Counted from the stretch's first letter, positions 1 through 17,360 are shown. The stretch: DNA of 52,397 nt from a virus (IMGVR_UViG_2690316086_000018), one strand, 5' to 3'. Program-made: numbers and translations. The notes: generated from the sequence alone by a model not told the origin.

Positions 1-219
1 ATGAAAGAAAATATTGAAACCAGCGTAAAACGATTTATCCGCGTTCCTGATGTTTTAAATCGAGTGGGATTCAGTCGCACGACCTTATATGAGCGTATTA
101 AGGAAGGGAACTTTCCAGACAGAGTAAAAATAGGTCCGAGGTGTGTCGCTTTTGTTGAAAGTGAGATTGATGAATGGATTGACTCGACTATTCGAAACTC
201 ACGCCAGAACGCTGCATAA
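1..219 (+). CDS. alpA: AlpA-family regulatory protein (excisionase-like HTH)
   Basis: 72-aa ORF; R-V-P-D-V-L-N-R-V-G-F-S-R-T-T-L-Y-E-R-I...G-P-R-C-V-A-F-V-E-S-E-I-D-E-W-I pattern typical of AlpA/Vis-like proteins; AT-rich context. Confidence 0.6.
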   Translation: MKENIETSVKRFIRVPDVLNRVGFSRTTLYERIKEGNFPDRVKIGPRCVAFVESEIDEWIDSTIRNSRQNAA

Positions 220-288
220 AAACAGATACAAGATCTCGTGTCGAACAGATAACTGTTCGCACAGGGCATCTTATTATCCTAAACAATA

Positions 289-591
289 ATGGAGAAGAAT
301 ATGAAGATAGAACTTATTACGACAAAACAGTTTATTGAACAAGCCGAATGTTATTTCAGGAACTATATGGACGGATTGCGGAGGAATGCACCAGATGATT
401 TTTATTATTTTATCAACAATAAATACAATATGAATGACATTATGGAAAGTATCATTAAAAAAACGAGATATCATTTTTACGATGACACAGAAGAAGGCAA
501 AAGGAATCGGATTTATGGAGAAGTAAGCCACAGTAAGGTAAAGCAACACCTTCGTCAGCTTTGGATTATCTATAAGTGTGTATACCGCTAA
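289..591 (+). CDS. hypothetical protein
   Basis: 100-aa ORF directly downstream of alpA on same strand; no recognisable motif. Confidence 0.35.
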   Translation: MEKNMKIELITTKQFIEQAECYFRNYMDGLRRNAPDDFYYFINNKYNMNDIMESIIKKTRYHFYDDTEEGKRNRIYGEVSHSKVKQHLRQLWIIYKCVYR

Positions 592-676
592 TACTGCAGC
601 ATTTCATTTTTAATATTAACCAAAAGGTAAAACTAATGAATACATTTAAGAATAAAAATACTAAATCTTTTATGTT

Positions 677-931
677 GTGTCCTTGCATATCTATGCGGAG
701 CTTTTTAACTCAAAGGATAAAACAACCAGCAATATGATTATAACGCATGTAATGGATCATGAGTTTGTCTTTAGGCTAATCGATCTGGCGATGAGAAATG
801 CTGAGAAACATCTTCTGAAAAAAGCATGGAAAAAGAATGCTGCTGAAAAACTGTCTGAGGTGGATTTTAAAGGGGTTAAGCAGGCATTAGCCAAAATGCA
901 TTACACTGTTCTGGCAGAATCAATATGTTGA
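677..931 (+). CDS. hypothetical protein (start uncertain)
   Basis: 84-aa ORF, same-strand run of small genes. Confidence 0.25.
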   Translation: MSLHIYAELFNSKDKTTSNMIITHVMDHEFVFRLIDLAMRNAEKHLLKKAWKKNAAEKLSEVDFKGVKQALAKMHYTVLAESIC

Positions 932-1004
932 TATGTTCTGACGTCTATCGGCCCCGTTATGGGGCTGAGAACAAATCTTATTTGTCTATCCAAGGAGCAA
1001 AAAA

Positions 1005-1247
1005 ATGATTGATGAATTTCATGTGATGTATATGTATAAAAAAATCCAAGCAGAAGCCGCAACTACCGACATCAAAACACTTGAACAGCTTTTGAAAAAG
1101 TTCAGGAGCGTGGTTCACGAACGTCGTGAAGAATACTATCAGGAAGTTGGTGAGAAAAAAGCGCGTAAGTTGAAAATGAAAAGAGCACAAAGAATGCTTG
1201 AGAAAATGGAATGTGACCGGGTCTCGCCAGAAGATCTCATTGACTGA
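1005..1247 (+). CDS. hypothetical Lys/Glu-rich small protein
   Basis: 80-aa ORF preceded by aaggag RBS at ~990. Confidence 0.4.
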   Translation: MIDEFHVMYMYKKIQAEAATTDIKTLEQLLKKFRSVVHERREEYYQEVGEKKARKLKMKRAQRMLEKMECDRVSPEDLID

Positions 1248-1284
1248 TAAGAGTTCTGTATAATAATGTATCTACATCAAAAAC

Positions 1285-1692
1285 ATGGAGGTGGTTATGG
1301 GCTGGGAGCTTCACATAGTAAGAACGGAACATTGGTTCGATAGCGCAAGTGTTCCAATCAGTAGTGAAGAATGGCTCCAGCTTGTTAATGATGATAAAGA
1401 ACTCTCCATAGATAACAAGAATGGTGATTTTTTTGCTCTATGGAGTGGTCAAAGTGAACTCGATGAACCTTGGCTTGACTGGAGTGATGGAAGGATTTCA
1501 ACAAAGCATCCTGACGAAGCCCTTTACTGTAAAATGTTGCAGATAGCTGAGAAGCTACATGCTGTAGTCGTTGATGAGGATGATCATAAATATTCGCTAC
1601 CAAGTGACCTGATGAATCCTTCATGGGCGAATTCATCACCAGTTGGTAAAAAACAATCTTTATGGGAAAAGTTAATTTCAAAACTAAAATAA
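1285..1692 (+). CDS. hypothetical protein
   Basis: 135-aa ORF; ggaggtg RBS before internal ATG at 1297. Confidence 0.4.
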   Translation: MEVVMGWELHIVRTEHWFDSASVPISSEEWLQLVNDDKELSIDNKNGDFFALWSGQSELDEPWLDWSDGRISTKHPDEALYCKMLQIAEKLHAVVVDEDDHKYSLPSDLMNPSWANSSPVGKKQSLWEKLISKLK

Positions 1693-1697
1693 TGTTC

Positions 1698-2168
1698 TTA
1701 TATAGTTTTCGTCGGGTCATTATCAACCACTGTTGCTTTCAAAGCATCAAGCTCTGAGATATAAGAGTCCAAAAGTTGAATGCATTCTCTTGCTAATTGT
1801 AAGGCATCATATATTTTGCCATCACATAAAATAGTATATTTGCATGTCATTACTTCACCACCACCTGTTCCTGAATACCAAGTAGATGTTTGTTTTTGTT
1901 TAGCTGCGATGTGAGGTTGGCGACTAGTTCGCATTGAGCGAGTTAATTTGCAATGTTTAGAACCATTAGCTAAATCAGCGCAAATCTTCAATGCTTGGTG
2001 TTCATTGATGAATATATCCACATGACTTGCTCTGATATTCAAAGTGTTAAGGTGAATGATCCAATCTCTAATATGATAGCAATGGATGAAAAATGAAATA
2101 ACATCATCATCGTAGTCTTCTTCGTTATGTCCTGAAGAAGAAATAATACCCGAGTAGATTTTCTCCAT
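1698..2168 (-). CDS. hypothetical protein
   Basis: 156-aa ORF, last gene of minus-strand run downstream of rep. Confidence 0.4.
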   Translation of the reverse strand: MEKIYSGIISSSGHNEEDYDDDVISFFIHCYHIRDWIIHLNTLNIRASHVDIFINEHQALKICADLANGSKHCKLTRSMRTSRQPHIAAKQKQTSTWYSGTGGGEVMTCKYTILCDGKIYDALQLARECIQLLDSYISELDALKATVVDNDPTKTI

Positions 2169-2273
2169 TCGATTAAGATATTTTTGCTTCTTTTAACCTG
2201 TTCCATTTATCGTTTCCATCATCAGTATTAACAATTGATAAGATTGCTAATATTATATTATGAAGGTTTGGAT

Positions 2274-2753
2274 TTAGATAGACATTTTCCTGCTCTTCTG
2301 GCTTGATGGTTCGAACTCTGACGAGATACGAGATAGTTGCTCAAGACTCTGTTCAATTGAACGCTGGAACTCCATAGCGGCTTCTGTGCGTTGTTTTATG
2401 ACTAAGGCTACTATTTCTTCATCACTCTTTTCTGAAATGGCCTTACGGTATAACACGCGTTCGTTAAATAAATCGAGATTACCAGTTGATCTCGCTGATG
2501 TGTTAGCTTTTGAACTGCTGATAGGATTTAACTCGTCAATAAAGTATTCAATAAGAGATCCTCTCTTTTTTTCAAGTCTGCGAAGTTCGGTATGTGCAGA
2601 CTTAAATTTTTGAGCCTTAACCAATGGAATGTCATCGGAACGCAGTTTGCGATATTCATTTCTGTATTCTTCTATAGAAATATGATTTTTTAGTTCTTTG
2701 ACTGTATTTACGTATTCGATTAAATCACTGTTGTCTGTTTTTACTTTTCTCAT
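2274..2753 (-). CDS. hypothetical coiled-coil protein
   Basis: 159-aa ORF immediately downstream of rep on minus strand. Confidence 0.4.
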   Translation of the reverse strand: MRKVKTDNSDLIEYVNTVKELKNHISIEEYRNEYRKLRSDDIPLVKAQKFKSAHTELRRLEKKRGSLIEYFIDELNPISSSKANTSARSTGNLDLFNERVLYRKAISEKSDEEIVALVIKQRTEAAMEFQRSIEQSLEQLSRISSEFEPSSQKSRKMSI

Positions 2754-2842
2754 AAGAAATACCTCGTAGATAAAATAGGGGATATGTTTATATTACGATA
2801 TATGGTGTAAGTGTCAAATGGCCTAATATATAGGCAAAAGTT

Positions 2843-3550
2843 TTATATGTTTTCTTCTTCATCAAACTCATCTTCTTGAGAATAATCATCAAATATGTTG
2901 TCTTCTGAAAAAGAGTCCCAATCAATATCCTCATCGGGTGTGGAAAGCAAAGGTTTATCATCTTCTTTATTGATTGATTTCTCTTCGTGGTTTTTAAATA
3001 TCCTATCTTTATAAACGGTGACGAATACGTCCTCGATGCCTTCACTGGTTGTTCTCAGCGACTTCTGAACATATTCTTTCCTTATTGGATTTAATGTTCT
3101 GTATTGGCCTTTCAGGAATAGATTGGCGTTTATTAAAGTGTGTTTACCGTCTTGAATAAGAATGCCTTTATTGATAAGTTTTTTCCAGCATTTGCACACA
3201 TTAGATTTGCTCATACCAAGCTCTTCTGCGAGTGCTGACTGAGATATACTGGCTATCAGATTCCCATGCTGCATGAGTTTACACAAACGGATCATTATTG
3301 TGTATTCAGCACCAGACATATTTTTACCAAGCTTTTCCAGATTATCGACAAAAGCATGAACATAGGCTATTCCCGGCTGTATATCCGAACTTCGTTCCTT
3401 TTTAATATTGACGGTTATTTTATCTTTTCGGTTTCTGTTATAAAAACTGTAAATCTCTAGTTTCTGTTTATCGGTAAAATCATTTTTGTTGATATAATCT
3501 TCCAATTGTTCACTACTTGAGGTCATTATTGTGTTGTAATCAATGCTCAT
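2843..3550 (-). CDS. putative iteron-binding replication initiator (winged-HTH, acidic C-terminal tail)
   Basis: 235-aa ORF with HTH-like segment ISQSALAEELGMSKSNVCKCWKKLINKGIL; AT-rich region and iteron array immediately upstream. Confidence 0.45.
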   Translation of the reverse strand: MSIDYNTIMTSSSEQLEDYINKNDFTDKQKLEIYSFYNRNRKDKITVNIKKERSSDIQPGIAYVHAFVDNLEKLGKNMSGAEYTIMIRLCKLMQHGNLIASISQSALAEELGMSKSNVCKCWKKLINKGILIQDGKHTLINANLFLKGQYRTLNPIRKEYVQKSLRTTSEGIEDVFVTVYKDRIFKNHEEKSINKEDDKPLLSTPDEDIDWDSFSEDNIFDDYSQEDEFDEEENI

Positions 3551-3689
3551 GGTTTTTCCTTTTATTATTATTGTTGTTTTTTATATATAATGCAGTATGT
3601 GCTTTTGTCAAAAATAAATGTGAAAAAAAGAAAAATAATACACTTTTGCGAAATAGCGTCCACTGCTTGCTTGCGGATTTTAACTATTG

Positions 3690-3790
3690 AAAGTTTCCAC
3701 GGAAGAAACTTTGGTTTCTGTACAGGAAACTTCGGTTTCCATAGAAGAAACTTAAATTTCCGTACAGGAAACTTTTTCCGTAAAATCTCC
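3690..3790. repeat. iteron-like array, ~4 direct repeats of ~21-22 bp (GAAACTTnnnnTTTCCGTACAG-like)
   Basis: direct repeats visible: ggaagaaactttggtttctgtaca / ggaaacttcggtttccataga / agaaacttaaatttccgtaca / ggaaactttttccgtaaaatc. Confidence 0.55.
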
Positions 3791-3915
3791 TTTAAAAATA
3801 ATGGTTTATGCTTCCTTAATACTATAATATGTTTAATAACTTTAACGTGGAGTGTGCCGGATAAATGGCACCGTTTGGTTTTTTTATTATTTTTACTTTA
3901 TGTTATGAACAGCCA

Positions 3916-3947
3916 GTGATTGTTTTGCACAATCACGAAATGCTGCT
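3916..3947. repeat. partial third copy of palindrome-containing repeat (GTGATTG..CAATCAC..GAARTGCTGCT)
   Basis: gtgattgttttgcacaatcacgaaatgctgct matches the core of the repeats at 4015 and 4516. Confidence 0.5.
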
Positions 3948-4014
3948 TTTATTGTGAGAGCTTATTTAAGATTTCTTTTACTTTATATGCGTCTTCGATG
4001 CGATCTTTTTTGGA

Positions 4015-4150
4015 TAAATCCATCATTAACAGGGGCAAGCCCTGTCCAACAAAGTGATTGGTGTGAACAATCACGAAGTGCTGCTACTAAATATATAGTT
4101 TTCCTATGTGTTTAAGAGCAAATGCTATATGTCAGAGGGGAAATGCTATG
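4015..4150. repeat. ~135-bp direct repeat copy A with two internal hairpins
   Basis: ~90 percent identical to 4516-4650; contains CAGGG-gcaag-CCCTG and GTGATTG-n7-CAATCAC inverted repeats. Confidence 0.65.
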
Positions 4151-4515
4151 TTCGAACATAGGATCTGATGTTAACTTGATAGAGTGAATAGTGAGATTAA
4201 GATCATGTTGTTTTCCATTGATAAAATAGTAATAACTTATAAGTGAACAAGAAAAATAGTTTTATACCAGTATCAGGGGCGTAGCCGTGCGCCAGCACAA
4301 TGTATATATTTTCAAAAAAAATAATTGAATGTATCAGGTAAGAATAAATATCAATAAATATAAGTAATAGTGTTCTATAAGCTGTTAATAAACCGCACAG
4401 GAAGCTTGCTAAGACGTTGGAAGCAGGAAGATGACACATATAACCATCTTCATACTTAAAACGCTTATAATTGATTACAGGCAGTAATTTATATGGAAAA
4501 AATCATTAATTGAAA

Positions 4516-4650
4516 AATCCATCATTAACAGGAACAAGCCCTGTCCAGCAAAGTGATTGTTGGCAACAATCACGAAGTGCTGCTACTAAAGATATAGTTT
4601 TCCTATACATTTAAGAGCAAATGCTATATGTCAGAGATGAAATGCTATTT
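4516..4650. repeat. ~135-bp direct repeat copy B
   Basis: near-identical to 4015-4150. Confidence 0.65.
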
Positions 4651-4748
4651 TTAATTATTTAGTGTTATGAAAAACTAGATCCTGTTTATATCCGCTTGGT
4701 TTCAGCACTCACACAGATGTGTGAAGAAACTATAAAATCACAGATGTT

Positions 4749-4795
4749 ATAAAATATCATAAATATCATAAATATCATAAATATCATAAATATTT
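4749..4795. repeat. tandem 9-bp repeat (ATCATAAAT) x4 plus partial copy
   Basis: atcataaatatcataaatatcataaatatcataaat read directly; ~80 bp upstream of operon start. Confidence 0.75.
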
Positions 4796-4873
4796 TTGAT
4801 ATTACGACTGGTTGCATGGTATTAAATAAAAATAATAACAAAAATCTACTTGGCTACAGCTTTGACAGGAAAC

Positions 4874-5227
4874 ATGGATAAACACTATATCCCTGTTTTA
4901 CAGGATTTAAGAAGAGTGATATACAGCGACAGAATGTTATCAAGGCTTGCAGATAGCGGCAATATTGTTATCCATAGTTCAGTTGGGTATCCGGTTGCTA
5001 AATACAAAAACACGGGGATTAGCATAGGTATAGAACCATTGAATCCAATGATAAGACAAGATCTGACTCTTGGATATATAGTGGTCGTCAGAAACGGGAA
5101 AACATCACAGGAGATTAATGGTTTACTTAACAGGTCATTGCCAAAAGCAATAAGCACTTTTAAGGATCACATCAATGAATATGAAGCAGTAAAAAGTAAA
5201 ATGCGACAACAAACTATGATCTGGTAA
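4874..5227 (+). CDS. hypothetical protein (first gene of unknown operon)
   Basis: ATG at 4874 preceded by AGGAA; track ORF begins at TTG 4850. Confidence 0.4.
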   Translation: MDKHYIPVLQDLRRVIYSDRMLSRLADSGNIVIHSSVGYPVAKYKNTGISIGIEPLNPMIRQDLTLGYIVVVRNGKTSQEINGLLNRSLPKAISTFKDHINEYEAVKSKMRQQTMIW

Positions 5228-5264
5228 AATATTTAGTCTGATAACTTCAGGAGGAGGATGAGCG

Positions 5265-6227
5265 ATGGAAGGTAAGTTAATTTTTTGTTCCGATGCAATA
5301 CTACGGTTTCAGTCCGATTACGATGAAACCGCTGCCGTTCCATTGCTATCCATCCAGAACGTCATAGCCGATACCGATCCGTTTTTTCTTCTCCGTTTCT
5401 TCCACCATACCGTTCTGATTGAAGAAGGAACAACGCTGGCAAGTATCTTTCTGGCAATAGAACCGTGGAAGGCTTTGTTAGCGGCTTATCTGGACAGAGA
5501 TGTTGGTGCTTATATAGATGAGGTAAGAAAACCGTCCGGGCCAACGACATGGGATATTGAATGGATTGGGATTGATCGTCGTAGCATGGTTTACCGTGCT
5601 TATAAACGTCAGGAGATGCAAGATGATGAGGACGTTTCTGACTATTTAAACCGGGAACGCGTTCTGACCGATGAATTTGAGATTGAAAGTGGCTGTGAGG
5701 CTTCTGGCTTCATTAAAGGTGATAAAGAACGCTGGAGCATCAGTGGTGATGTTCACGAGATAAAGAATCTGCCTGTAATCCTCTATAGCAAACAGACATT
5801 GATGACTTCACCGAAAGACGGTTTGCTGAAGAAAAACGTATCGGGTGTGAAGAGTTCCAAGCACAGTTGCTTCGTTTATGGCGATACCTCGTTTTCATTG
5901 AGAGAGGTTATGGAAGCCATCTTCATTAGCGGGCTGTTCTTCTATGCGCCAAGAGACGCCGCCAGTAGTCTTGATGAGCTGAAAGCGAGTGTGGCTGAAC
6001 TGGAAGAAGAACGCGCTGAAAATCCAAATGCGGAGTCGACTGGCAATGAAACAGAGGAAGAACCTACCATCGTCGTAGCCGAAGGTGCATTTGATTCGCT
6101 CGCAGCTCACATGGAGTCTGAAAACGCGGAGTGGCAATACATTAAGAAGTTGTGCCAGCAAGAAGGTGAGCTGCCCATACGTATTGGCAACATCAAAATG
6201 GCTGAGCCACCAGAGTTTCATTTTTAG
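5265..6227 (+). CDS. hypothetical protein, 320 aa
   Basis: strong RBS aggaggagg before ATG; acidic C-terminal region; no recognised motif. Confidence 0.5.
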   Translation: MEGKLIFCSDAILRFQSDYDETAAVPLLSIQNVIADTDPFFLLRFFHHTVLIEEGTTLASIFLAIEPWKALLAAYLDRDVGAYIDEVRKPSGPTTWDIEWIGIDRRSMVYRAYKRQEMQDDEDVSDYLNRERVLTDEFEIESGCEASGFIKGDKERWSISGDVHEIKNLPVILYSKQTLMTSPKDGLLKKNVSGVKSSKHSCFVYGDTSFSLREVMEAIFISGLFFYAPRDAASSLDELKASVAELEEERAENPNAESTGNETEEEPTIVVAEGAFDSLAAHMESENAEWQYIKKLCQQEGELPIRIGNIKMAEPPEFHF

Positions 6228-6278
6228 TTTAAAAGCAATAATCTACCACTTAATGATTACGAAACTATAAGTCGAAGG

Positions 6279-7460
6279 ATGATTCACATGCCGCATAAAA
6301 AAGTAGCGCTACAGCTTATTGAGGAAACGCTTAAAGAACTTGAGTCCCCAAAAGGCTCTTTGTTATCGGCTATACAAAAGCTCCAAAGGACCGCAGATAT
6401 CATTAATGATGAAGATACAAAAATATGGTGTGCTATTCAGTTGGGGGACGATAAATACACAACACCACTTAAATTATTTTTAAAATTCTTAATCGATAAC
6501 AAAAATACAACTACGAAGACTTATGAGGAAAAATTAAGCAAACATATAAAAGTGTTATCTGATACAGGAATTAAGTCTGGAGTTCACTATTCTAACGAAG
6601 AACTTACGTTAAAAAGTAATGAAAGTGGTGGTGGATATAATAATATCGGGTTTATTGAAGAGAAATATGCAGATCTTGTAAGAAAAAAAGAAGGTAATGA
6701 TGGGACATACTATAAAAATAACTTAAACCAACATATTAATTATGTGAGAAAAAAAGCACATGAGTTAGCATCACAAATATTTAATCAACTAAAATTCTCA
6801 GGCACTGTCAGTAACTGTTTTGATATACTAAAAAATGCTGTCGATGATAAACTATTAGATCTAAATCCAGTGATCGCAGAACAGCTAATGTTGGCATTTA
6901 AAGCCATCTCTTCTGATAAAGAAGAAGAATGGTCTCAAGCTTTAACTACATGCCGTCGACTTCTGGAGGGATTGGCTGATGAACTTTACCCTGCATCAAA
7001 GGAGAAATTTAATGGTCGGGCCGTTGGGCAAGGTCAATATGTAAATCGCTTGTGGGCATTTATGGATGGGGCTATTCAATCCGAAAGTAATAAAGACCTT
7101 GCCAAAGCTCATATAGATTTTCTTGGATCATGGTTGGATAAAGTTAACAAGTTAACAAATAAAGGTGTTCATGCCGAGTTAAATCGGATTGAAGCTGTAA
7201 AGTCAGTATTTCATACGTATTTAGTTGTGGCAGATTTGCTTGAGTATATGTCAAATACTAAGATCACTGTCTCTAAGCCTGATATCAATAAAGCTACTTT
7301 AGATGAACTGGAGGCGTTGTTAAATATAAATAGAGCAATCGCTAAAGAAATTGTTAAAGCACGAGTTCGTGAAGGGAAGCTTGATCTGGATATTTTAAAA
7401 AATATAAAAGGTATAGGTGCCAAGACACTTAGTAATATACAAGAAGTGTTTGTTTTGTAA
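6279..7460 (+). CDS. hypothetical protein with C-terminal helix-hairpin-helix (ComEA-like) DNA-binding motif
   Basis: 393-aa ORF ending LDLDILKNIKGIGAKTLSNIQEVF; alternative start ATG 6288. Confidence 0.5.
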   Translation: MIHMPHKKVALQLIEETLKELESPKGSLLSAIQKLQRTADIINDEDTKIWCAIQLGDDKYTTPLKLFLKFLIDNKNTTTKTYEEKLSKHIKVLSDTGIKSGVHYSNEELTLKSNESGGGYNNIGFIEEKYADLVRKKEGNDGTYYKNNLNQHINYVRKKAHELASQIFNQLKFSGTVSNCFDILKNAVDDKLLDLNPVIAEQLMLAFKAISSDKEEEWSQALTTCRRLLEGLADELYPASKEKFNGRAVGQGQYVNRLWAFMDGAIQSESNKDLAKAHIDFLGSWLDKVNKLTNKGVHAELNRIEAVKSVFHTYLVVADLLEYMSNTKITVSKPDINKATLDELEALLNINRAIAKEIVKARVREGKLDLDILKNIKGIGAKTLSNIQEVFVL

Positions 7461-7499
7461 TTTATTTAGCATTTGATTGATATAATATTATGAAATAAA

Positions 7500-7534
7500 G
7501 TCGGGAGTTCATACGTAGCAACTCCCGATTTTAC
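7500..7534. terminator. bidirectional rho-independent terminator-like hairpin
   Basis: cgggagtt / aactcccg 8-bp stem followed by T-run, between convergent genes. Confidence 0.5.
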
Positions 7535-7551
7535 GATGATACGTTGTATTA

Positions 7552-7929
7552 TCAATCCATCAAACCGCGTGAAGTCTTACTTGCAGTATGACGAAAATCA
7601 TAACGTTCCACAACATCACCCTTAAACCAGATATCCAGAGATTTAATGTGCGCCGTGCTGCTATTGGTCAACAGAGCAAGGCCCGGTATATAGTTAGATA
7701 GTTGGTTTTCTCCCGTCATACTTGAGTAGTTCCACATCTCCTGCCCATCATTCGTAGCGCGTGTCTGAGGCTCTCCAAAGGCAGCAAGAATTTCTTGTTG
7801 GGTAGTTTTTCCCTTGACGATTTTAACTTTAACCGTCTGATGATTTTCATCAGTTAGGGATTTATTGCCATGAACGGTACAGCCACCAAGCGGAAGTATG
7901 ATAAAAATAGCAAATAATAAATTTTTCAT
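7552..7929 (-). CDS. putative lipoprotein
   Basis: MKNLLFAIFIILPLGGC signal peptide plus lipobox; track ORF extends to 8001. Confidence 0.5.
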   Translation of the reverse strand: MKNLLFAIFIILPLGGCTVHGNKSLTDENHQTVKVKIVKGKTTQQEILAAFGEPQTRATNDGQEMWNYSSMTGENQLSNYIPGLALLTNSSTAHIKSLDIWFKGDVVERYDFRHTASKTSRGLMD

Positions 7930-7960
7930 TTTTGTTCCATAAATAGATGAAAGGTGAGAC

Positions 7961-8449
7961 TCAGAAAACATACTTTTTAAATACCAGCATCCATCGCTCA
8001 CAAAGTTCGTGATTTGAAGTGCTTTTATTTTTCAGGGGAACATTAACTTTCCACATGGGATTTTTAATATCATCGGTTAAAATATTTAGGCCAGACCTTT
8101 TATTCGCTGAAAGTTGTTCTTTCCAGTTAGCAATAGCCGCATTATTCATACCTCGTAATGTTCCATTGCCGTAAAACTTACCACCCTCTGAAAGCGTGTA
8201 ATTTATTTCCCGGATTTCATCAAAAGTATATGTGCTGTCTTTATTTTTATTGAAAATACGGATAGTATGTTTTTGAGTATCAATTACAATACCTGTCTGC
8301 TGGCATTCATACGAAAGAATGTCGCCGTCCAGAACTTCTGTGAAGTTGTTGTAGTGCTTTTTCTTCTGTATATCTGCTGCGGTCATGATAATGACGAAGA
8401 GCACCACTAAAAACACGATACCTGTTGCTTCCACTCTTACTTCCTCCAT
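7961..8449 (-). CDS. membrane-anchored hypothetical protein
   Basis: 162-aa ORF with N-terminal hydrophobic helix GIVFLVVLFVIIMTAA; upstream of lipoprotein on same strand. Confidence 0.45.
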   Translation of the reverse strand: MEEVRVEATGIVFLVVLFVIIMTAADIQKKKHYNNFTEVLDGDILSYECQQTGIVIDTQKHTIRIFNKNKDSTYTFDEIREINYTLSEGGKFYGNGTLRGMNNAAIANWKEQLSANKRSGLNILTDDIKNPMWKVNVPLKNKSTSNHELCERWMLVFKKYVF

Positions 8450-8569
8450 GTAAATGAGTTAAAGAGACTGAACCCGCTCACAGAGCTTTGCTTCGTTTTA
8501 TACGTCCTACAGCACCAAACTCATGGCGTCGGTCTCGGCGTTGCAAGGCTATCAGAACTTGAAATCATG

Positions 8570-8707
8570 ATCGATATAAAAGATCGATAATGAGTTATTG
8601 ATAGATTTTAACGATTAAATAGATGATATCGATCGGCAATTAATTGTTATTATCGATCGAATATCAACTTATGATAGCTACAAGCTATCATGTGGTCGTT
8701 TTTGATC
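8570..8707. promoter_or_regulatory. GATC / ATCGAT-rich divergent intergenic region (possible Dam-sensitive control region)
   Basis: 5 GATC sites in ~140 bp (8570, 8583, 8631, 8656, 8704) plus 9-bp-arm palindrome atgatagct-aca-agctatcat. Confidence 0.4.
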
Positions 8708-8854
8708 GTTTTAAACGATATGACGAGACGCTAAAAGAATTGAATCCTATCAATTGGTTAAGCGGTGGTTTTGCCATGTGATATTAGCCGGATCCCGCAA
8801 CAACTCTAGCCCTGACCGGATTAGGTCAAAAATTTAGGCACTTTGATTATCAGG

Positions 8855-9397
8855 ATGGATAAGCAGATGAAGAAGATTTTACTCGTTGCTGGCGCAGCTC
8901 TGGCACTGGCGGGATGTGGTGAGAAAGGTGATTTTGAGAAAGCGATCAATGCCAAGATTGGGCAGGACAAATACTGCTTCTCGCTGGATAACAATAACAC
9001 CAGCTTCCCCATCCGTCTTGCCAAGCCACGGCTTGATTCGACTGGCACAGGAACGAATTCAGTGATCCTCGATGGATTTGTTGAACAGGGAATGATGGTC
9101 TTTGAACAGGGCTATGACTCGAACGTCTTAGGGATAACAGAGGAAGGCAAAAAAGCCAAAGTCTGGAGCACACAAGATGGTGCCTGTGTTGGTCGTCGTG
9201 CCGTTGACGAAATTAAGGAATGGACGGAACCGGGTGAAGGTGGTCAGAAAGTTGTTCGCGTATCTTATACATGGAAGCTTACTGACGTTCCGAGCTGGAT
9301 TGACAAAAAAGTGTTCGCCAACGTTAAAGGGATGAATGAACCTGCTGATGGCGTAATGAATCTCTTTAAGACCAGTAATGGTTGGAAAGCTAACTAA
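8855..9397 (+). CDS. putative lipoprotein
   Basis: MKKILLVAGAALALAGCG signal peptide plus lipobox; track ORF starts at TTG 8843. Confidence 0.55.
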   Translation: MDKQMKKILLVAGAALALAGCGEKGDFEKAINAKIGQDKYCFSLDNNNTSFPIRLAKPRLDSTGTGTNSVILDGFVEQGMMVFEQGYDSNVLGITEEGKKAKVWSTQDGACVGRRAVDEIKEWTEPGEGGQKVVRVSYTWKLTDVPSWIDKKVFANVKGMNEPADGVMNLFKTSNGWKAN

Positions 9398-9826
9398 AAG
9401 GATACTGGATCGTTAAATGCCCCTGTTGCTTTGTAGAAGGTCAGAGCCGGGGCATGTTTGCACAGGTTGAATAACCACGGTTTTATATGATGTGTATCCG
9501 CAGTGGTATGTCATCATGATCAATTTATTGTTTTTTGGGCGGTCTTCTCTCATTGGGATGTCAACAGGAATGGCTGATGCTGCTATTAGCTTTCCGAGAA
9601 TTACTATCGTGGGATTTGTTTCTGGTAAAGCTATTTACTCTGATAATGTTGCGTTCAGGTGATTAATGTAGAATCATTTGTAATGACCCATGCTTTTTGT
9701 TACTAGCGTGGGTTTTTATAGATGTCCTTGTTTACAATCAGACTGTAAATAATATTATCTTTACATTTTGTTTGGTATGTGATAATGAATTTATTCCTGT
9801 CTTATGGTCATTGTTAAGGATTTTTT

Positions 9827-10795
9827 ATGAAGGATAGAATAAAAATAACAATCCCGTTCTCAGAAGAGAATAAAGCTTTCCTTGAGTTTGTTGATGCTTG
9901 GGATCAAATAATTCCAACATGCTATTTTGTCGATATATGTTGTGTTGGTAATATAAAAAATAGCGCTAAATATCTTCTCGAAGAAAATGTAGGTACGAAA
10001 AAATTTTATTTTATAAAATCATTAGAGAGAATAGACCTAAAGCATAACACAATTTCATATTTCCCAGCCTTGATGGAAAAAGTAAGTGATTTTTATAATG
10101 ATAAACCAATTCAGAGATTGAGAGAAGAAGCTAAAGAAGACCTTAATGCGCTGCGATGTTTTTTCAAAAATGTTAGAGTTATGGAGGATACTGATTTTAC
10201 TAACATGTATATTGAAGGTATGAAGTCTCATCACCCTGAAGTTGATGGTGAAAAATATCATCAATTTCTCTCCTTTATTAATGAAAGTGGAATAATCGAC
10301 CCTGTTTCTCCTGACGAAAGATTAGATTTTGTAAGGTTATTCTGTGAACAAGCAAATAGATTGACTCTTGATAAAAGAAGTGTTGTATTTGTTTCGTCTG
10401 TAGCTTGTATTTATGGATGTTTACCTGCAAGAAGATTAATGAAATTCAAACGAGATCCGACTAAATTCAATAGTAGTAACGTGTTGGCAGATTTGCAATC
10501 GGTAAGTCGAGTTGCTAGGTTGTCATCTGAAATCGAATGCACTGGAAGGTCTGCTTTCGCTAGATTCTCATATCTGACTGAGGATAATAACCTTAAAATA
10601 TTATCTGATTGTTTTTTTGTAAGGAATGTCGAGAGAGAAACTATACCAAATGGTATATCTAATAAACTAACTACAACCATAGATGGAAAAAGATTGTTTC
10701 CGGCTCTTTTCAATAGTGATGGTTATTTAATTAATGAGAAAGCAGAACAGGAGTTCAATGAACTATTAACGCTGTTAGGAGTCGATGTACCATAA
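9827..10795 (+). CDS. hypothetical protein, 322 aa
   Basis: AT-rich ORF with aagga RBS; convergent with AbiGi-like gene. Confidence 0.45.
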   Translation: MKDRIKITIPFSEENKAFLEFVDAWDQIIPTCYFVDICCVGNIKNSAKYLLEENVGTKKFYFIKSLERIDLKHNTISYFPALMEKVSDFYNDKPIQRLREEAKEDLNALRCFFKNVRVMEDTDFTNMYIEGMKSHHPEVDGEKYHQFLSFINESGIIDPVSPDERLDFVRLFCEQANRLTLDKRSVVFVSSVACIYGCLPARRLMKFKRDPTKFNSSNVLADLQSVSRVARLSSEIECTGRSAFARFSYLTEDNNLKILSDCFFVRNVERETIPNGISNKLTTTIDGKRLFPALFNSDGYLINEKAEQEFNELLTLLGVDVP

Positions 10796-10848
10796 ATTGA
10801 GAATGTGCTATATAAAAATAACTCTCTTAGCTGATTATGATATATTCT

Positions 10849-10886
10849 ATAGCCTTGTTTTATACTATGCCAAGGCTATATTTATT
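10849..10886. terminator. hairpin between convergent genes
   Basis: atagccttg ... caaggctat inverted repeat followed by A/T-rich run. Confidence 0.35.
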
Positions 10887-10891
10887 AATAA

Positions 10892-11656
10892 TTATAGATC
10901 ATCATTGTTCTGGGAAGAATAGAAAATTTTACTTATTAATTCGTTGCTGACCTCTAGGCCTTTCTTATCAAGATTTTTAATGAATGAACTTAATTGGCTT
11001 TTGTTTTTTAGTATTATATAGTTAATGTCATTTATCCCAAAATCAAGATGAATACTATTTATTTTATCATTATATTCATTCTTTTTTTCAGTGCTTTTTA
11101 TTTTACTGAGTAATGCTATTGGTATTATCCCCTCTTGGTGGGTAGGAACAAATCGCCACTCCATTTCATCTGCAAAACAATAGTCAATTTCTTTTTTGCC
11201 TTCTCTCGTTAGTGGTCCTGTATGATTCTTCATATAACGGAGTATATTTATCAAAGACTGATAATCATTATTTTTGGAATATTCATTCGCAATATCTTTA
11301 TCGTTCTTGAATTTTCTAATCTGCTGATCAAGTAAGGTGAATACATCCGAATATCTACTCATGTATAATACAGGGTTTAAATTGTTTTTTGAGGCCCAGT
11401 CGTCATTAAGACCAATTCCATAATGTCCATACTTCTTTGTATGTTCAGATAACAAAGATAGCCTGATATTACAAAAGGAAACCATTGGTATTCCAAAACG
11501 TCGAGCTACACCATCTTTATTATATATGGTCTCTCTGGCATATGAGGGCCGAAAATATCCATCAGTTAAAATTGATTCCAGCTTGGATTTTTTATCCGTA
11601 AAGTGTAAAAATGTTTTTGGATATAGACTTTTAGTCAATTTCATGAGCCTCGTCAA
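10892..11656 (-). CDS. possible AbiGi-like abortive-infection protein
   Basis: 254-aa ORF; N-terminal FLHFT...LESIL, IPMVSFCNI and YGHYGIGL motifs resemble the AbiGi family as I remember it; not verified by search. Confidence 0.4.
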   Translation of the reverse strand: MTRLMKLTKSLYPKTFLHFTDKKSKLESILTDGYFRPSYARETIYNKDGVARRFGIPMVSFCNIRLSLLSEHTKKYGHYGIGLNDDWASKNNLNPVLYMSRYSDVFTLLDQQIRKFKNDKDIANEYSKNNDYQSLINILRYMKNHTGPLTREGKKEIDYCFADEMEWRFVPTHQEGIIPIALLSKIKSTEKKNEYNDKINSIHLDFGINDINYIILKNKSQLSSFIKNLDKKGLEVSNELISKIFYSSQNNDDL

Positions 11657-11772
11657 TTAATAATATGAAATATTATATATCAAAATAGTTGCTAAAGGAA
11701 CTCATGACTTTGTTAATGATAATAACATCACTTTTCCCACAGGGTAATCATGGCATCCTTGTGCTTCCATAG

Positions 11773-12465
11773 TTATTTAAATCTTGAATTTGGCTGTTTT
11801 GATTTTTGTGATTGTTTACTACTATGTTCAAACAACATTAATGGTGTCACTTCTATATTGCTATCGGTAGAATTCTCTCCCTTACGAGGACGACTTGGGA
11901 AACGAACGGTCTTGTCATTATCTGATACGTTTCCACAGAAGTCTGCTTCTGATGATTTTTGGTCATTGTTAAATTTAGCTCGTTTTTCAAACTCTGAACG
12001 TGGAACATTGACACCCAACACTTCATCAAAGATATAGTTTTCTGCGATACGCTTATCATGATCAGCATCAGTGGTATCGGGCTTCCTTCTGGCCCATACG
12101 AATCTCTCTCTTATATATCCTACCACCAGTAGTGTGAAACGCTTAAACAAACTACTCTGACGCGGCTTAATCTGTTTCCTACTACTCATGGGAGCACGGT
12201 TCATCACTTTGGTGTTTTGAAGAGATGGGGTTTTCAATTTAGTGGATGCATTTGGTTCAGGAACAACCAGAACAGGGGATTTCTTCCCTGAAACATTTAC
12301 TTTACTGACCTTATTAGGATCACGGTAAGATTTTGCTGCTGGTCTTCTGCTTGTAGTTGCTGTTGCCACAATCGGCTGCTGTTCTTCTACTGTCGGGAAG
12401 TCAGGGATAACAATCTCTTCGGGTTCAGCAAGATGTGTAATCGTAAAGCTTCTGACATCAACCAC
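11773..12465 (-). CDS. hypothetical basic low-complexity protein (GTG start) just downstream of reconstructed mobA end
   Basis: 230-aa K/P/S/T-rich ORF; starts at GTG. Confidence 0.3.
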   Translation of the reverse strand: MVDVRSFTITHLAEPEEIVIPDFPTVEEQQPIVATATTSRRPAAKSYRDPNKVSKVNVSGKKSPVLVVPEPNASTKLKTPSLQNTKVMNRAPMSSRKQIKPRQSSLFKRFTLLVVGYIRERFVWARRKPDTTDADHDKRIAENYIFDEVLGVNVPRSEFEKRAKFNNDQKSSEADFCGNVSDNDKTVRFPSRPRKGENSTDSNIEVTPLMLFEHSSKQSQKSKQPNSRFK

Positions 12466-12515
12466 GATCTCAAGTGGTAGCTCACTGAATGTGGTGTATA
12501 TAGCGCGGCGATTTT

Positions 12516-12626: not shown

Positions 12627-13364
12627 TCATTCACTCTCTTTCAAACCAGTTTTAACTGTTTGTGGTTTTGGGTAAGGCTGGACTTTGAATAGCTTTGTGT
12701 TGAGGCGTTTTCTGGCCCTCTTGTTCAGAAACCGGATGTAACGAAACTGTCGGAACTTATGCACACTGGCTCTGTCGATATTAGCCCTCAGATGTTCACC
12801 TCGTTGTCCGCCTCGTTTAATGGCACTCCTGCAAATCTCGTGATACCACTCGCCATCAAGTTCATAGAATGTTGATTCATGGCTGCCTACATAATCAAAA
12901 TTGCTTGCCTGATACACGACACCAAGACAGCCACAACGCTCATCTGCAAACGACTGAACCCACTGTACCTGCGGATAAAGCTGCCTGATTAGCTTGAGCG
13001 CGTAACTGATTGCCCTTGATTCGGAGTTTCTCGGCATACAGTCATGCATCCATAGCCGGTTAAGCTCCATATATTCTCGGTTCTGCGTACCCGTTACGAC
13101 GCGTGCACCACTGTTTGGGTTAAGGGCGTAACCCCATTGCATTACGCCAACAAGTTCCCGTTCTGAAAATATACCCAGATGAAGGTAGGAATTATTTACG
13201 AAACGGTGGCTGTAATGTTTATTGACGATAACCAGTCTGGCCAGCCAGCAACTTATTGTCTCAACCCGCAACTCACGGGAGCCATAACCAACGATATTGT
13301 CGTTATAGCGAATAAGTTCAGGCGTGCTGATGATACGGGATGTGACTTGCTTTCTGTTCCCCAC
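12627..13364 (-). CDS. mom: Mom-like DNA modification protein
   Basis: 245-aa ORF overlapping the 3' end of a Com-like gene, last gene before prophage end, GATC cluster upstream: the Mu com-mom arrangement. Confidence 0.6.
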
Positions 13365-13565: not shown

Positions 13566-13703
13566 GATCGACAAAAACGATCGATTCGATTTGTTTAATT
13601 GATACAACAAATAGATTTAAAAGTCATCAACAATGATTCAGGGCGGTGATTATTTACTTAAAGAAACGAAGAGTTAGGTGGTGAAAACGATCATAAAATG
13701 ATC
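13566..13703. promoter_or_regulatory. GATC cluster upstream of com-mom (probable Dam-dependent regulatory region)
   Basis: GATC at 13566, 13579, 13689, 13700 embedded in ATCGATCG-type motifs. Confidence 0.5.
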
Positions 13704-16799: not shown

Positions 16800-17360
16800 T
16801 TATTTTTCCGAAACGCTCGCAGGATAATAACGATAAAGGGTTGAAAGGCCGATATCAAAAATAAGTGCCACCTGTCTTCGACTGACACCCCCGGCCAGTA
16901 AACGCCCGACCTGCTCGTATTGTTCCTGCGTGAGACGACGGGGTCTGCCGCCGGTTCGTCCCCTTTCACGGGCAGCTGCAAGACCAGCCCGTGTCCGTTC
17001 GACAATTAATTCACGCTCCATTTCTGCCAGCGCACCCATTATGTGAAAAAAGAAGCGCCCCATGGGGGTTGACGTATCAATGTTGTCAGTAAGACTACGA
17101 AAATTTATCCCCTGTTGCTGTAATTCATCTGTCAGCGCAACAAGGTGGCGCATACTGCGCCCCAGCCTGTCCAGTTTCCAGACCATCAGTGTGTCACCGG
17201 GTTTTAGTTTCTTCAGTGCCCGCTTCAGTCCCGGCCGCTGTGTCGTTTTACCACTCATTTTGTCTTCAAAAATCTGCTCACATCCTGCACATTCCAGCGC
17301 ATTTCTTTGTAAACCGGTGTTCTGGTCATTTGTTGATACGCGTATATAGCCAATCAGCAT
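16800..17360 (-). CDS. gin: Gin-type serine DNA invertase
   Basis: MLIGYIRVSTNDQNTGLQRNAL...DRLGRSM...; near-identical in pattern to Mu Gin/Hin/Cin. Confidence 0.9.
   Translation of the reverse strand: MLIGYIRVSTNDQNTGLQRNALECAGCEQIFEDKMSGKTTQRPGLKRALKKLKPGDTLMVWKLDRLGRSMRHLVALTDELQQQGINFRSLTDNIDTSTPMGRFFFHIMGALAEMERELIVERTRAGLAAARERGRTGGRPRRLTQEQYEQVGRLLAGGVSRRQVALIFDIGLSTLYRYYPASVSEK

Follow-up and report, generated by a model that had tools for sequence, protein, structure and literature searches.

A putative OxyR/Dam phase-variation control region, related to that of opvAB, upstream of an island-borne lipoprotein gene

Positions 8567–8760 of IMGVR_UViG_2690316086_000018, a viral record of 52,397 nucleotides (the window, i.e., the whole stretch of DNA analysed), are likely, judging from their sequence and its relatives, to form an epigenetic on/off (phase-variation) control region that is governed by OxyR and Dam, related to the one of opvAB, and located upstream of a SEN1982-family lipoprotein gene on an excisable island. 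The region is a conserved module of 194 bp on the plus strand, made up of an upstream activating region and a putative promoter, and its limits were set from homology, conservation and alignment with opvAB. An earlier note on this DNA had left the partner protein unnamed; the half-sites described below point to OxyR. By analogy with opvAB, the expected behaviour would be heritable on/off phase variation and not simple modulation.

In Salmonella enterica, opvAB (STM2209-STM2208) is a phase-variation switch operated by OxyR and Dam (PMC3350482, PMC4856963), in which OxyR is an activator that gives bistability and drives the downstream operon. Its half-sites have been footprinted with OxyR, SeqA and HU play ancillary parts, and the methylation of each GATC differs between ON and OFF lineages (PMC4856963). 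The abstract of PMC3350482 describes opvAB as having no relatives outside Salmonella, and a 2026 paper on opvAB promoter variation is likewise confined to Salmonella.

GATC sites and OxyR-type half-sites in the spacer

GATC occurs at 8569, 8582, 8631, 8655 and 8704, that is, five times in 139 bp, with pairwise distances of 13, 24, 49, 62, 73, 86, 122 and 135 bp. The expectation for 139 bp is 0.47 sites from the window average (3.4/kb) and 0.35 from the local base composition (29.5% G+C), which puts the density at 10–14 times expectation. The count alone is weak evidence, because random placement of 177 sites in 52 kb gave at least five GATC in some 140-bp stretch in 16% of the trials; the significance of the cluster comes from the conservation of its positions. 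ATCGAT is present in four copies in the cluster out of 11 in the window, and the 8-mer GATCGATA (complement TATCGATC) in four out of six. The descriptive claims of the earlier note thus held up on recounting: the five GATC in about 140 bp at roughly ten times the random frequency, the palindrome with 9-bp arms, which lies at 8671–8691, and the likeness of the ATCGAT motifs to those upstream of mom, a likeness that is meaningful since the mom operator is likewise detected by the half-site scan.

For that scan, 15-mers were scored over 10 positions against the OxyR consensus ATAGnTnnnAnCTAT. As positive controls, the scorer recovered the published opvAB half-sites at -148, -116, -75 and -43 with 10, 8, 10 and 7 of 10 (vs PMC4856963) and those of P22 gtr, at a 32-bp spacing, with 8, 10 and 8 of 10 (vs PMC2909390); the mom operator inside the window (13566–13612) was found as well. 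In the whole 52 kb, three 15-mers scored at least 9/10, and all three belonged to the module (8601, 9/10; 8619, 9/10; 8674, 10/10). Five 15-mers of at least 8/10 fell within the 194 bp; dinucleotide shuffles (n = 2000) averaged 0.35 and never gave as many as five.

We describe the array as five half-sites, HS1 to HS5. The perfect one, HS4 (ATAGCTACAAGCTAT, 8674–8688, 10/10, centre 8681), is the core of the palindrome ATGATAGCT-aca-AGCTATCAT and corresponds to OBSC (-75) of opvAB. HS2 (ATAGATTTTAACGAT, 8601–8615, 9/10, family mean 8.9/10, centre 8608) corresponds to OBSA (-148), and HS5 (ATCGTTTTAAACGAT, 8705–8719, 8/10 in every family member, centre 8712) to OBSD (-43). HS3 (ATTGTTATTATCGAT, 8643–8657, 8/10, family mean 7.8/10, centre 8650) lies one helical turn downstream of the OBSB position, while HS1 (ATCGATATAAAAGAT, 8570–8584, 7/10, centre 8577) spans GATC1 and GATC2, 31 bp from HS2. 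Because the centres are spaced by 31, 42, 31 and 31 bp, the five half-sites share one face of the helix. A separation of 31 bp is typical of reduced OxyR, and in the entire window the only pairs of sites of at least 8/10 lying 30–33 bp apart were HS3–HS4 and HS4–HS5. One further half-site-like 15-mer, ATAGATGATATCGAT (8619–8633, 9/10), overlaps GATC3 but is particular to the lineage of the window: its left half is not conserved in relatives and differs in the Salmonella and CFT073-like copies.

The GATC sites keep a regular relation to this array. GATC1 (8569–8572), an extra site without an opvAB counterpart, precedes GATC2 by 13 bp, the distance also found between GATC1/2 and 3/4 of P22 gtr and between GATC II/III of agn43. 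GATC2 (8582–8585) is the equivalent of opvAB GATC1 and would stand at about -172 if transcription began at 8755; it starts 19 nt before the ATAG of HS2, the same offset as that of opvAB GATC1 from OBSA. GATC3 (8631–8634, about -123) matches opvAB GATC2, and its centre is 24.5 bp from that of HS2, an offset kept in 30 of the 30 distinct full-length modules. GATC4 (8655–8658, about -99), the equivalent of opvAB GATC3, runs over the 3' end of HS3, and 19 nt separate its start from the ATAG of HS4. Finally, GATC5 (8704–8707, about -50) corresponds to opvAB GATC4. It shares bases with the 5' end of HS5, which is closest to the promoter among the half-sites, and is followed after 12 nt by the putative -35, as in opvAB. 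The best half-sites, HS2 and HS4, are free of GATC, whereas the weaker HS1, HS3 and HS5 overlap one; GATC2 and GATC3 are held at fixed distances outside half-sites, like GATC1 and GATC3 of opvAB. In the GATC-bearing half-sites, the deviations from the OxyR consensus fall exactly where GATC arises (ATCG for ATAG, CGAT for CTAT), so that GATC appears to be kept at some cost in OxyR fit.

Relation to opvAB and conservation of the module

To obtain the opvAB upstream region, we pieced it together from the mutagenesis primers listed by Cota et al. 2012 (Table S1; PMC3350482) and later retrieved it in one piece from a Salmonella Infantis chromosomal fragment filed among plasmids (L045). The module of the window was 67% identical to it over 195 bp, with an alignment score of 107.5 vs 40 ± 6 (maximum 61.5) in 300 shuffles, i.e., about 10 standard deviations, and some relatives were nearer to opvAB than the window, such as a Kluyvera copy (L012) with 82% identity over 144 bp. 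In one alignment (A4), the sequence L026 carried wrong coordinates and was disregarded. The plasmid collection in question holds other chromosomal DNA, including 500-kb Salmonella fragments (L045 itself is CP148755.1) and a 4.8-Mb E. coli record (H56, NZ_OL790696.1), a caveat for any claim that a sequence occurs on plasmids.

The resemblance extends to the geometry. The spacing from GATC2 to GATC5 is 49/24/49 bp in the module, where it is conserved in the family, and 50/23/50 in opvAB (L045). In both systems, 19 nt separate the start of a GATC from the ATAG of the strong half-site, the proximal half-site begins at the A of the last GATC, and 12 nt lead from the last GATC to the -35 (a putative ATGACG in the module, GTGAAT as assigned in PMC3350482 for opvAB), followed by a 17-nt spacer. 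Both also have perfect or near-perfect, GATC-free half-sites at the OBSA and OBSC positions and a weaker, GATC-containing one at OBSD, and both lie in A+T-rich, horizontally acquired DNA with cell-envelope proteins as cargo. Unlike opvAB, the module has the additional GATC1, which forms the fifth half-site HS1, as well as a weaker -10, a 5' leader of about 110 nt and a conserved IHF-like block. Its cargo is a lipoprotein operon, whereas that of opvAB is an O-antigen chain-length modulator. Furthermore, the module, known here from sequence alone, travels on excisable islands in many genera and often stands beside divergent genes; the opvAB region lies in a 992-nt chromosomal insert without mobility genes.

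The putative -35, ATGACG (8720–8725, plus strand), was placed 12 nt after GATC5, where the opvAB -35 sits after GATC4 (PMC3350482). It is conserved in the family as [A/G]TGACG and recurred in promoter scoring. The putative -10, AATCCT (8743–8748, plus strand), is weak, although its A2 and T6 are conserved, and a transcription start is tentatively predicted, by the same analogy, near 8755. The conserved block TATCAATTGGTTA (8748–8760, plus strand) matches the IHF core consensus WATCAANNNNTTR exactly. It is contained in a larger conserved block, AATTGAATCCTATCAATTGGTTA (8738–8760), which has an A/T-rich tract upstream of the core and overlaps the predicted -10 and start. Scans of the module for CRP and sigma-54 sites were negative, with a 3-mismatch sigma-54 match on the wrong strand only.

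A sensitive BLAST search with 8400–8900 gave matches in 681 of 5426 complete E. coli genomes (about 12%). Many of them were limited to query positions 168–361 (that is, 8567–8760), at 72–76% identity, and stood upstream of different gene sets in related islands; 8567 is the exact left boundary of the homology to other E. coli islands, which runs out near 8760. In the E. coli alignment, the five GATC and the palindrome arms were invariant, while the palindrome centre varied freely. A search pattern free of GATC, TATGATAG-N7-CTATCA-N20-25-AAACGAT, applied to one genome per species, returned 32 loci. Of these, 29 were genuine and came from about 20 genera of Enterobacterales, including Yersinia, Pectobacterium, Dickeya, Brenneria, Erwinia, Klebsiella, Enterobacter and Kluyvera; the remaining three (from Ilyomonas, a spirochaete and Ruminococcus) were dropped as chance matches. 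The module is also present in Salmonella ROD21-like islands and in the tcpC island of CFT073.

Of the 30 distinct full-length modules, 25 had all five GATC at the offsets -102, -89, -40, -15 and +34, and six of seven further copies from viral contigs kept them too. Mean conservation over the 30 modules was 0.993 in the GATC columns vs 0.797 in the others (Mann–Whitney p = 1.6e-7). We therefore regard the placement of the GATC sites as non-random because their positions are conserved, without relying on their number. The 9-bp palindrome arms of the window are reduced to 7 conserved bp (ATGATAG/CTATCAT) in relatives. These arms were invariant in the 30 sequences, without compensatory changes, and the centre varied freely, meaning that the palindrome is conserved as a DNA sequence and not as an RNA stem.

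Among close relatives (a Salmonella copy, L041, and a CFT073-like one, L040), the part of the module from 8567 to 8719 was 3–5 times more variable than its flanks, with 27 variable columns out of 153 vs 13 out of 264 (left 4/117, right 9/147; p = 4e-5). The GATC or half-site contact positions were variable in only 2 of 58 cases (p = 1.6e-4). This pattern suggests a tuning of switching rates, or else recombination between module variants; it resembles the 'structured promoter variability' lately described for opvAB.

Some natural copies depart from the standard layout. In Acerihabitans sp. TG2 (L035, module at about 6935–7170), GATC2, GATC4 and GATC5 have been lost by point changes and the perfect central half-site has been kept; this copy may be a naturally locked variant of the switch. 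Four core-only variants (L016, L023, L028 and L038) comprise a first half-site with GATC, the perfect palindrome and another half-site, and stand in front of small, unrelated genes. The first half-site of L023 (TGATCGGTCATAACGATCA) is almost the same as OxyR(A) of P22 gtr (TGATCGGTAACAACGATCA), a likeness in sequence that hints at a common ancestry of the gtr, opvAB and island switches.

The gtr switch of phage P22 and Salmonella (PMC2909390) is indeed matched by the downstream part of the array: HS3, HS4 and HS5 score 8, 10 and 8 of 10 at 31/31 bp, vs 8, 10 and 8 at 32/32 bp in gtr. In both, the outer half-sites contain GATC and the central one does not, and the shared central site would allow two mutually exclusive positions of the tetramer. 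The 13-bp GATC pair recurs as well, in HS1 only. On the other hand, each outer gtr half-site has two GATC, whereas HS3 and HS5 have one each. Half-site C of gtr overlaps the -35, and occupancy of B and C is the OFF state, whereas the module, like opvAB, has its proximal site immediately before the putative -35. Overall similarity in sequence to gtr is lacking, except in the core-only variants L023 and L038.

A different kind of OxyR site is represented by the operators of agn43 (flu) of E. coli and mom of phage Mu. The mom gene is controlled by OxyR and Dam. Like the module, these operators show ATCGATC-N6-ATCGATC dyads with GATC 13 bp apart and pairs of half-sites 31–32 bp apart. Positions 8569–8588 read on the minus strand (ATCGATCttttatATCGATC) differ from the agn43 operator (ATCGATCgtttatATCGATC) by one mismatch in 20. 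Unlike the module, however, agn43 and mom have single OxyR sites that serve repression only, with no array of alternative sites, and in agn43 a single tetramer site, located downstream of the start, contains three GATC, whereas no 45-bp stretch of the module holds three. The window itself provides an example, since its second GATC cluster (13566–13700) lies upstream of mom. This region carries ATCGATCG...ACGATCGAT, with a GATC pair at 13566 and 13579 (13 bp) and OxyR-like half-sites starting at 13567 and 13598 (both 7/10, centres 31 bp apart). Only two clustered GATC are found there, whereas Mu itself has three.

Other methylation-dependent switches gave poorer comparisons. The signature of pap is two GATC boxes 102–103 bp apart together with PapI-like and PapB-like genes (PMC2909390). 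A pap-type Lrp/Dam switch was rejected, as we found no GATC pair at 102–103 bp, no match to the Lrp consensus used at up to two mismatches and no papI- or papB-like gene annotated nearby; the scan yielded one weak match, a pap-like GATC box on the minus strand at GATC2. A Fur/Dam switch of the sci1 type was rejected too, the best Fur-box match being 13/19 and overlapping none of the GATC sites.

Proposed mechanism and alternative explanations

On the basis of opvAB homology and by analogy with gtr, an OxyR tetramer would have a choice between pairs of half-sites spaced by 31 bp, namely HS3+HS4 and HS4+HS5, with HS4 common to both; HS1+HS2 would be a further OxyR pair. Bound OxyR would shield the underlying GATC from Dam, and methylation of the exposed GATC would keep OxyR away from the alternative pair, so that each state would copy itself through replication. 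With OxyR at HS5 (near -43) and GATC5 unmethylated, the weak sigma-70 promoter would be activated and the lipoprotein made (ON); with OxyR upstream and GATC5 methylated, the gene would be OFF. Which occupancy pattern belongs to which state is a speculative guess on our part. The cargo is a cell-envelope protein, as for the known OxyR/Dam switches.

Judging by the same comparisons, the module probably drives the SEN1982-family lipoprotein gene. What ties it to this rightward gene is the homology to opvAB, the breakpoint at 8567 and the existence of module loci lacking a divergent left gene (L004, L013, L021 and L026); control of the leftward DUF4755 and SEN1984 genes is possible. The earlier note had proposed that the spacer, between genes correctly described as divergent, exerts Dam- or SeqA-sensitive control over the lipoprotein genes on both sides. 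Sensitivity to Dam is well supported, at the level of sequence, by the conserved GATC, the OxyR-type half-sites and the relation to opvAB, but SeqA would be ancillary at most; the proposal gains support for the rightward gene and not for the leftward ones.

Several observations weigh against a switch of the opvAB kind operated by OxyR. The half-sites were recognized through a 10-position consensus, and another LysR-type protein with a similar dyad could fit them. Where opvAB (spacing 32/41/32) has OBSB, the equivalent half-site of the module is degenerate (4/10 in the window, family mean 4.9), so that the opvAB model cannot be transferred unchanged. HS3, located 10–11 bp downstream, takes the place of OBSB, and since this shift amounts to one helical turn, HS3, HS4 and HS5 come to lie 31 bp apart as in gtr. 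The promoter is also less than clear: a promoter scan and sigma-70 scoring across 30 relatives gave no dominant candidate, the -10 matches the consensus in 3 of 6 positions, and the promoter was consequently assigned solely by its offset relative to opvAB. The conserved block at 8738–8760, with its exact IHF consensus, is unexplained by the OxyR/Dam model. Lastly, the family sequences have a common ancestry, and HS4 together with part of HS5 was built into the search pattern; the conservation statistics are thus supporting and not independent evidence.

If the array were bound by OxyR and sensitive to Dam, it could still be a graded regulator or silencer, as in agn43 and mom, without heritable bistability, or it could have the leftward DUF4755/SEN1984 operon as its main target. 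The single mismatch between HS1 and the agn43 operator core would suit such an explanation, as would a leftward promoter-like site detected by the promoter scan (TCGATA-16-TAAAAT, from 8632 to 8605), which would put HS1 just downstream of its start, as in agn43; moreover, DUF4755 and/or SEN1984-type genes are divergent at most loci. However, the positions of the leftward -10 coincide with HS2 contacts, so their conservation is uninformative about a promoter. The breakpoint and the loci without a left gene link the module to the right operon, and the homologous region of opvAB drives its downstream operon, with OxyR as an activator that confers bistability. We regard this alternative as unlikely. 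The GATC sites might instead be conserved for a protein other than OxyR (a LysR-type factor such as HdfR, an island regulator, IHF or the H-NS paralogue) or mainly for the binding of SeqA to hemimethylated pairs. Dyads of the form T-N11-A are shared by LysR-type factors at large, cooperative binding of SeqA would be feasible at GATC spacings of 13 and 24 bp, and SeqA and HU are ancillary at opvAB. The island, in DNA of 29.5% G+C, codes for an H-NS paralogue and a small helix-turn-helix protein, and the IHF consensus at 8748–8760 is exact and conserved. What makes this possibility quite improbable is the fit to the specific OxyR motif ATAG-N7-CTAT at 10/10 and 9/10 with the spacing of reduced OxyR, together with the OxyR footprints on the homologous opvAB sites. 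The occurrence of the module in about 20 genera with differing island content favours a universal host factor, and SeqA alone would leave the invariant, GATC-free half-sites unexplained.

Clusters of GATC in A+T-rich DNA are typical of oriC-like origins, and related islands have genes for RepL-like and MobQ proteins; the spacer could accordingly be a DNA-processing site of the excisable island, serving as an origin of replication or of transfer, or for sequestration. We rejected an oriC-like origin or SeqA sequestration region upon finding no DnaA box (TTWTNCACA) in 8540–8790, even with one mismatch. The module travels with the lipoprotein operon and not with repL or mobQ, and the homologous opvAB region is in an insert devoid of mobility genes. 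A terminator function of the palindrome, which the promoter/terminator scan lists as terminator-like together with the following TGGTCGTTTT, is hard to reconcile with invariant arms that show no compensatory changes, and no gene on the plus strand reads into the palindrome. These DNA-processing and terminator explanations are very improbable. As for a chance feature of A+T-rich intergenic DNA, the 16% of random placements mentioned above would make the bare density unsurprising in a window of this size, but the conservation of positions over about 20 genera, the significance of the half-site array and the similarity to opvAB refute chance, to which we attach next to no credence.

Returning to the opvAB-like OxyR/Dam switch, its sequence marks the module as a putative new member of the OxyR/Dam phase-variation switches. 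In the papers searched on SEN1982/3/4, ROD21, the tcpC island, undermethylated GATC, the Enteritidis methylome and opvAB, we found no report of Dam/OxyR control for the module locus, nor any methylome or single-cell data for it. A 2026 review names only agn43 and gtr as OxyR/Dam switches, while opvAB has its own papers. If the assignment is true, the module would be the fourth OxyR/Dam switch and by far the most widespread, with copies in roughly 12% of complete E. coli genomes and in Enterobacterales associated with plants, insects and animals. Epigenetic bet-hedging would thereby be linked to excisable pathogenicity islands, and the opvAB control region would gain an evolutionary origin. The expression of SEN1982 and other ROD21 genes may then differ from cell to cell, and if the gene is phase-variable, whole-culture measurements would give a false picture. 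The approximately 30 natural variants of the switch, some of them apparently locked, represent a ready series for relating half-site quality to switching rate.

A wider reading, which we offer tentatively, is that opvAB represents one offshoot of a large family of portable OxyR/Dam cassettes carried by ROD21/EARL-type islands in at least 20 genera of Enterobacterales, including the tcpC island of uropathogenic E. coli and ROD21 of Salmonella. The cassettes would have a distinct layout of five half-sites and five GATC that mixes gtr-like and opvAB-like logic, and they might act on both divergent operons. Their fast-evolving non-contact positions would tune switching rates lineage by lineage, and phase-variable envelope lipoproteins would hide part of the population from immunity or phages.

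Cargo genes, island and prophage

The presumed cargo gene (8867–9397, plus strand) encodes a SEN1982-family lipoprotein of 176 amino acids with the lipobox LAGC, and members of this family follow the module in nearly every locus. The second cargo gene (9408–9662, plus strand), for a small zinc-ribbon membrane protein (family C), is degraded, being a frameshifted pseudogene in the annotation of the identical ML775 record; intact 91-amino-acid copies follow the lipoprotein gene at other loci. Because of this frameshift, the copy of the operon in the window would express the lipoprotein alone. Elsewhere, a second lipoprotein gene often comes before the SEN1982-type gene, and a gene for a small zinc-ribbon or a multipass membrane protein after it. 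The divergent left neighbours, on the minus strand, are a DUF4755 protein gene (7961–8449) and, beside it, a gene for a BamE-like lipoprotein of the SEN1984 family (7552–7929); one or both types are the left neighbours in most module loci, not in all.

As to the function of the cargo, Pfam and NCBIfam recognized nothing beyond the lipoprotein signal and DUF4755, and the structure predicted by AlphaFold for the SEN1982-family lipoprotein was poor (pLDDT 58.9). According to passages in PMC10655114 and PMC6968874 that cite a transposon screen, SEN1982 is needed to colonise mouse spleen and liver.

Positions 1–12498 and 51614–52397 of the window match the chromosome of strain ML775 (E. coli O103) at 99.9–100% identity. 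The spacer is part of an excisable island of the ROD21/EARL type, whose genes encode, in addition to the proteins mentioned above, a TIR-domain protein, a ComEA-like protein, a DUF4756 protein and a MobQ relaxase. A strain derived from CFT073 carries the locus too, in its tcpC (serU) island, and so does a ROD21-like island of Salmonella. A search of the phage collection with 7500–9500 gave no match.

The rest of the window is a Mu-like prophage of 39.1 kb (12499–51613), inserted in the mobQ relaxase gene of the island. The window is collinear with ML775 to the left and right of the prophage, with a 4-bp overlap at the junction. The prophage encodes, all on the minus strand, a Mu-type transposase (48302–50392), a Gin-like invertase (16800–17360) and Mom (12627–13364), and the identity of the mom gene was confirmed by its match to the Pfam family Mom (E = 8.5e-77).

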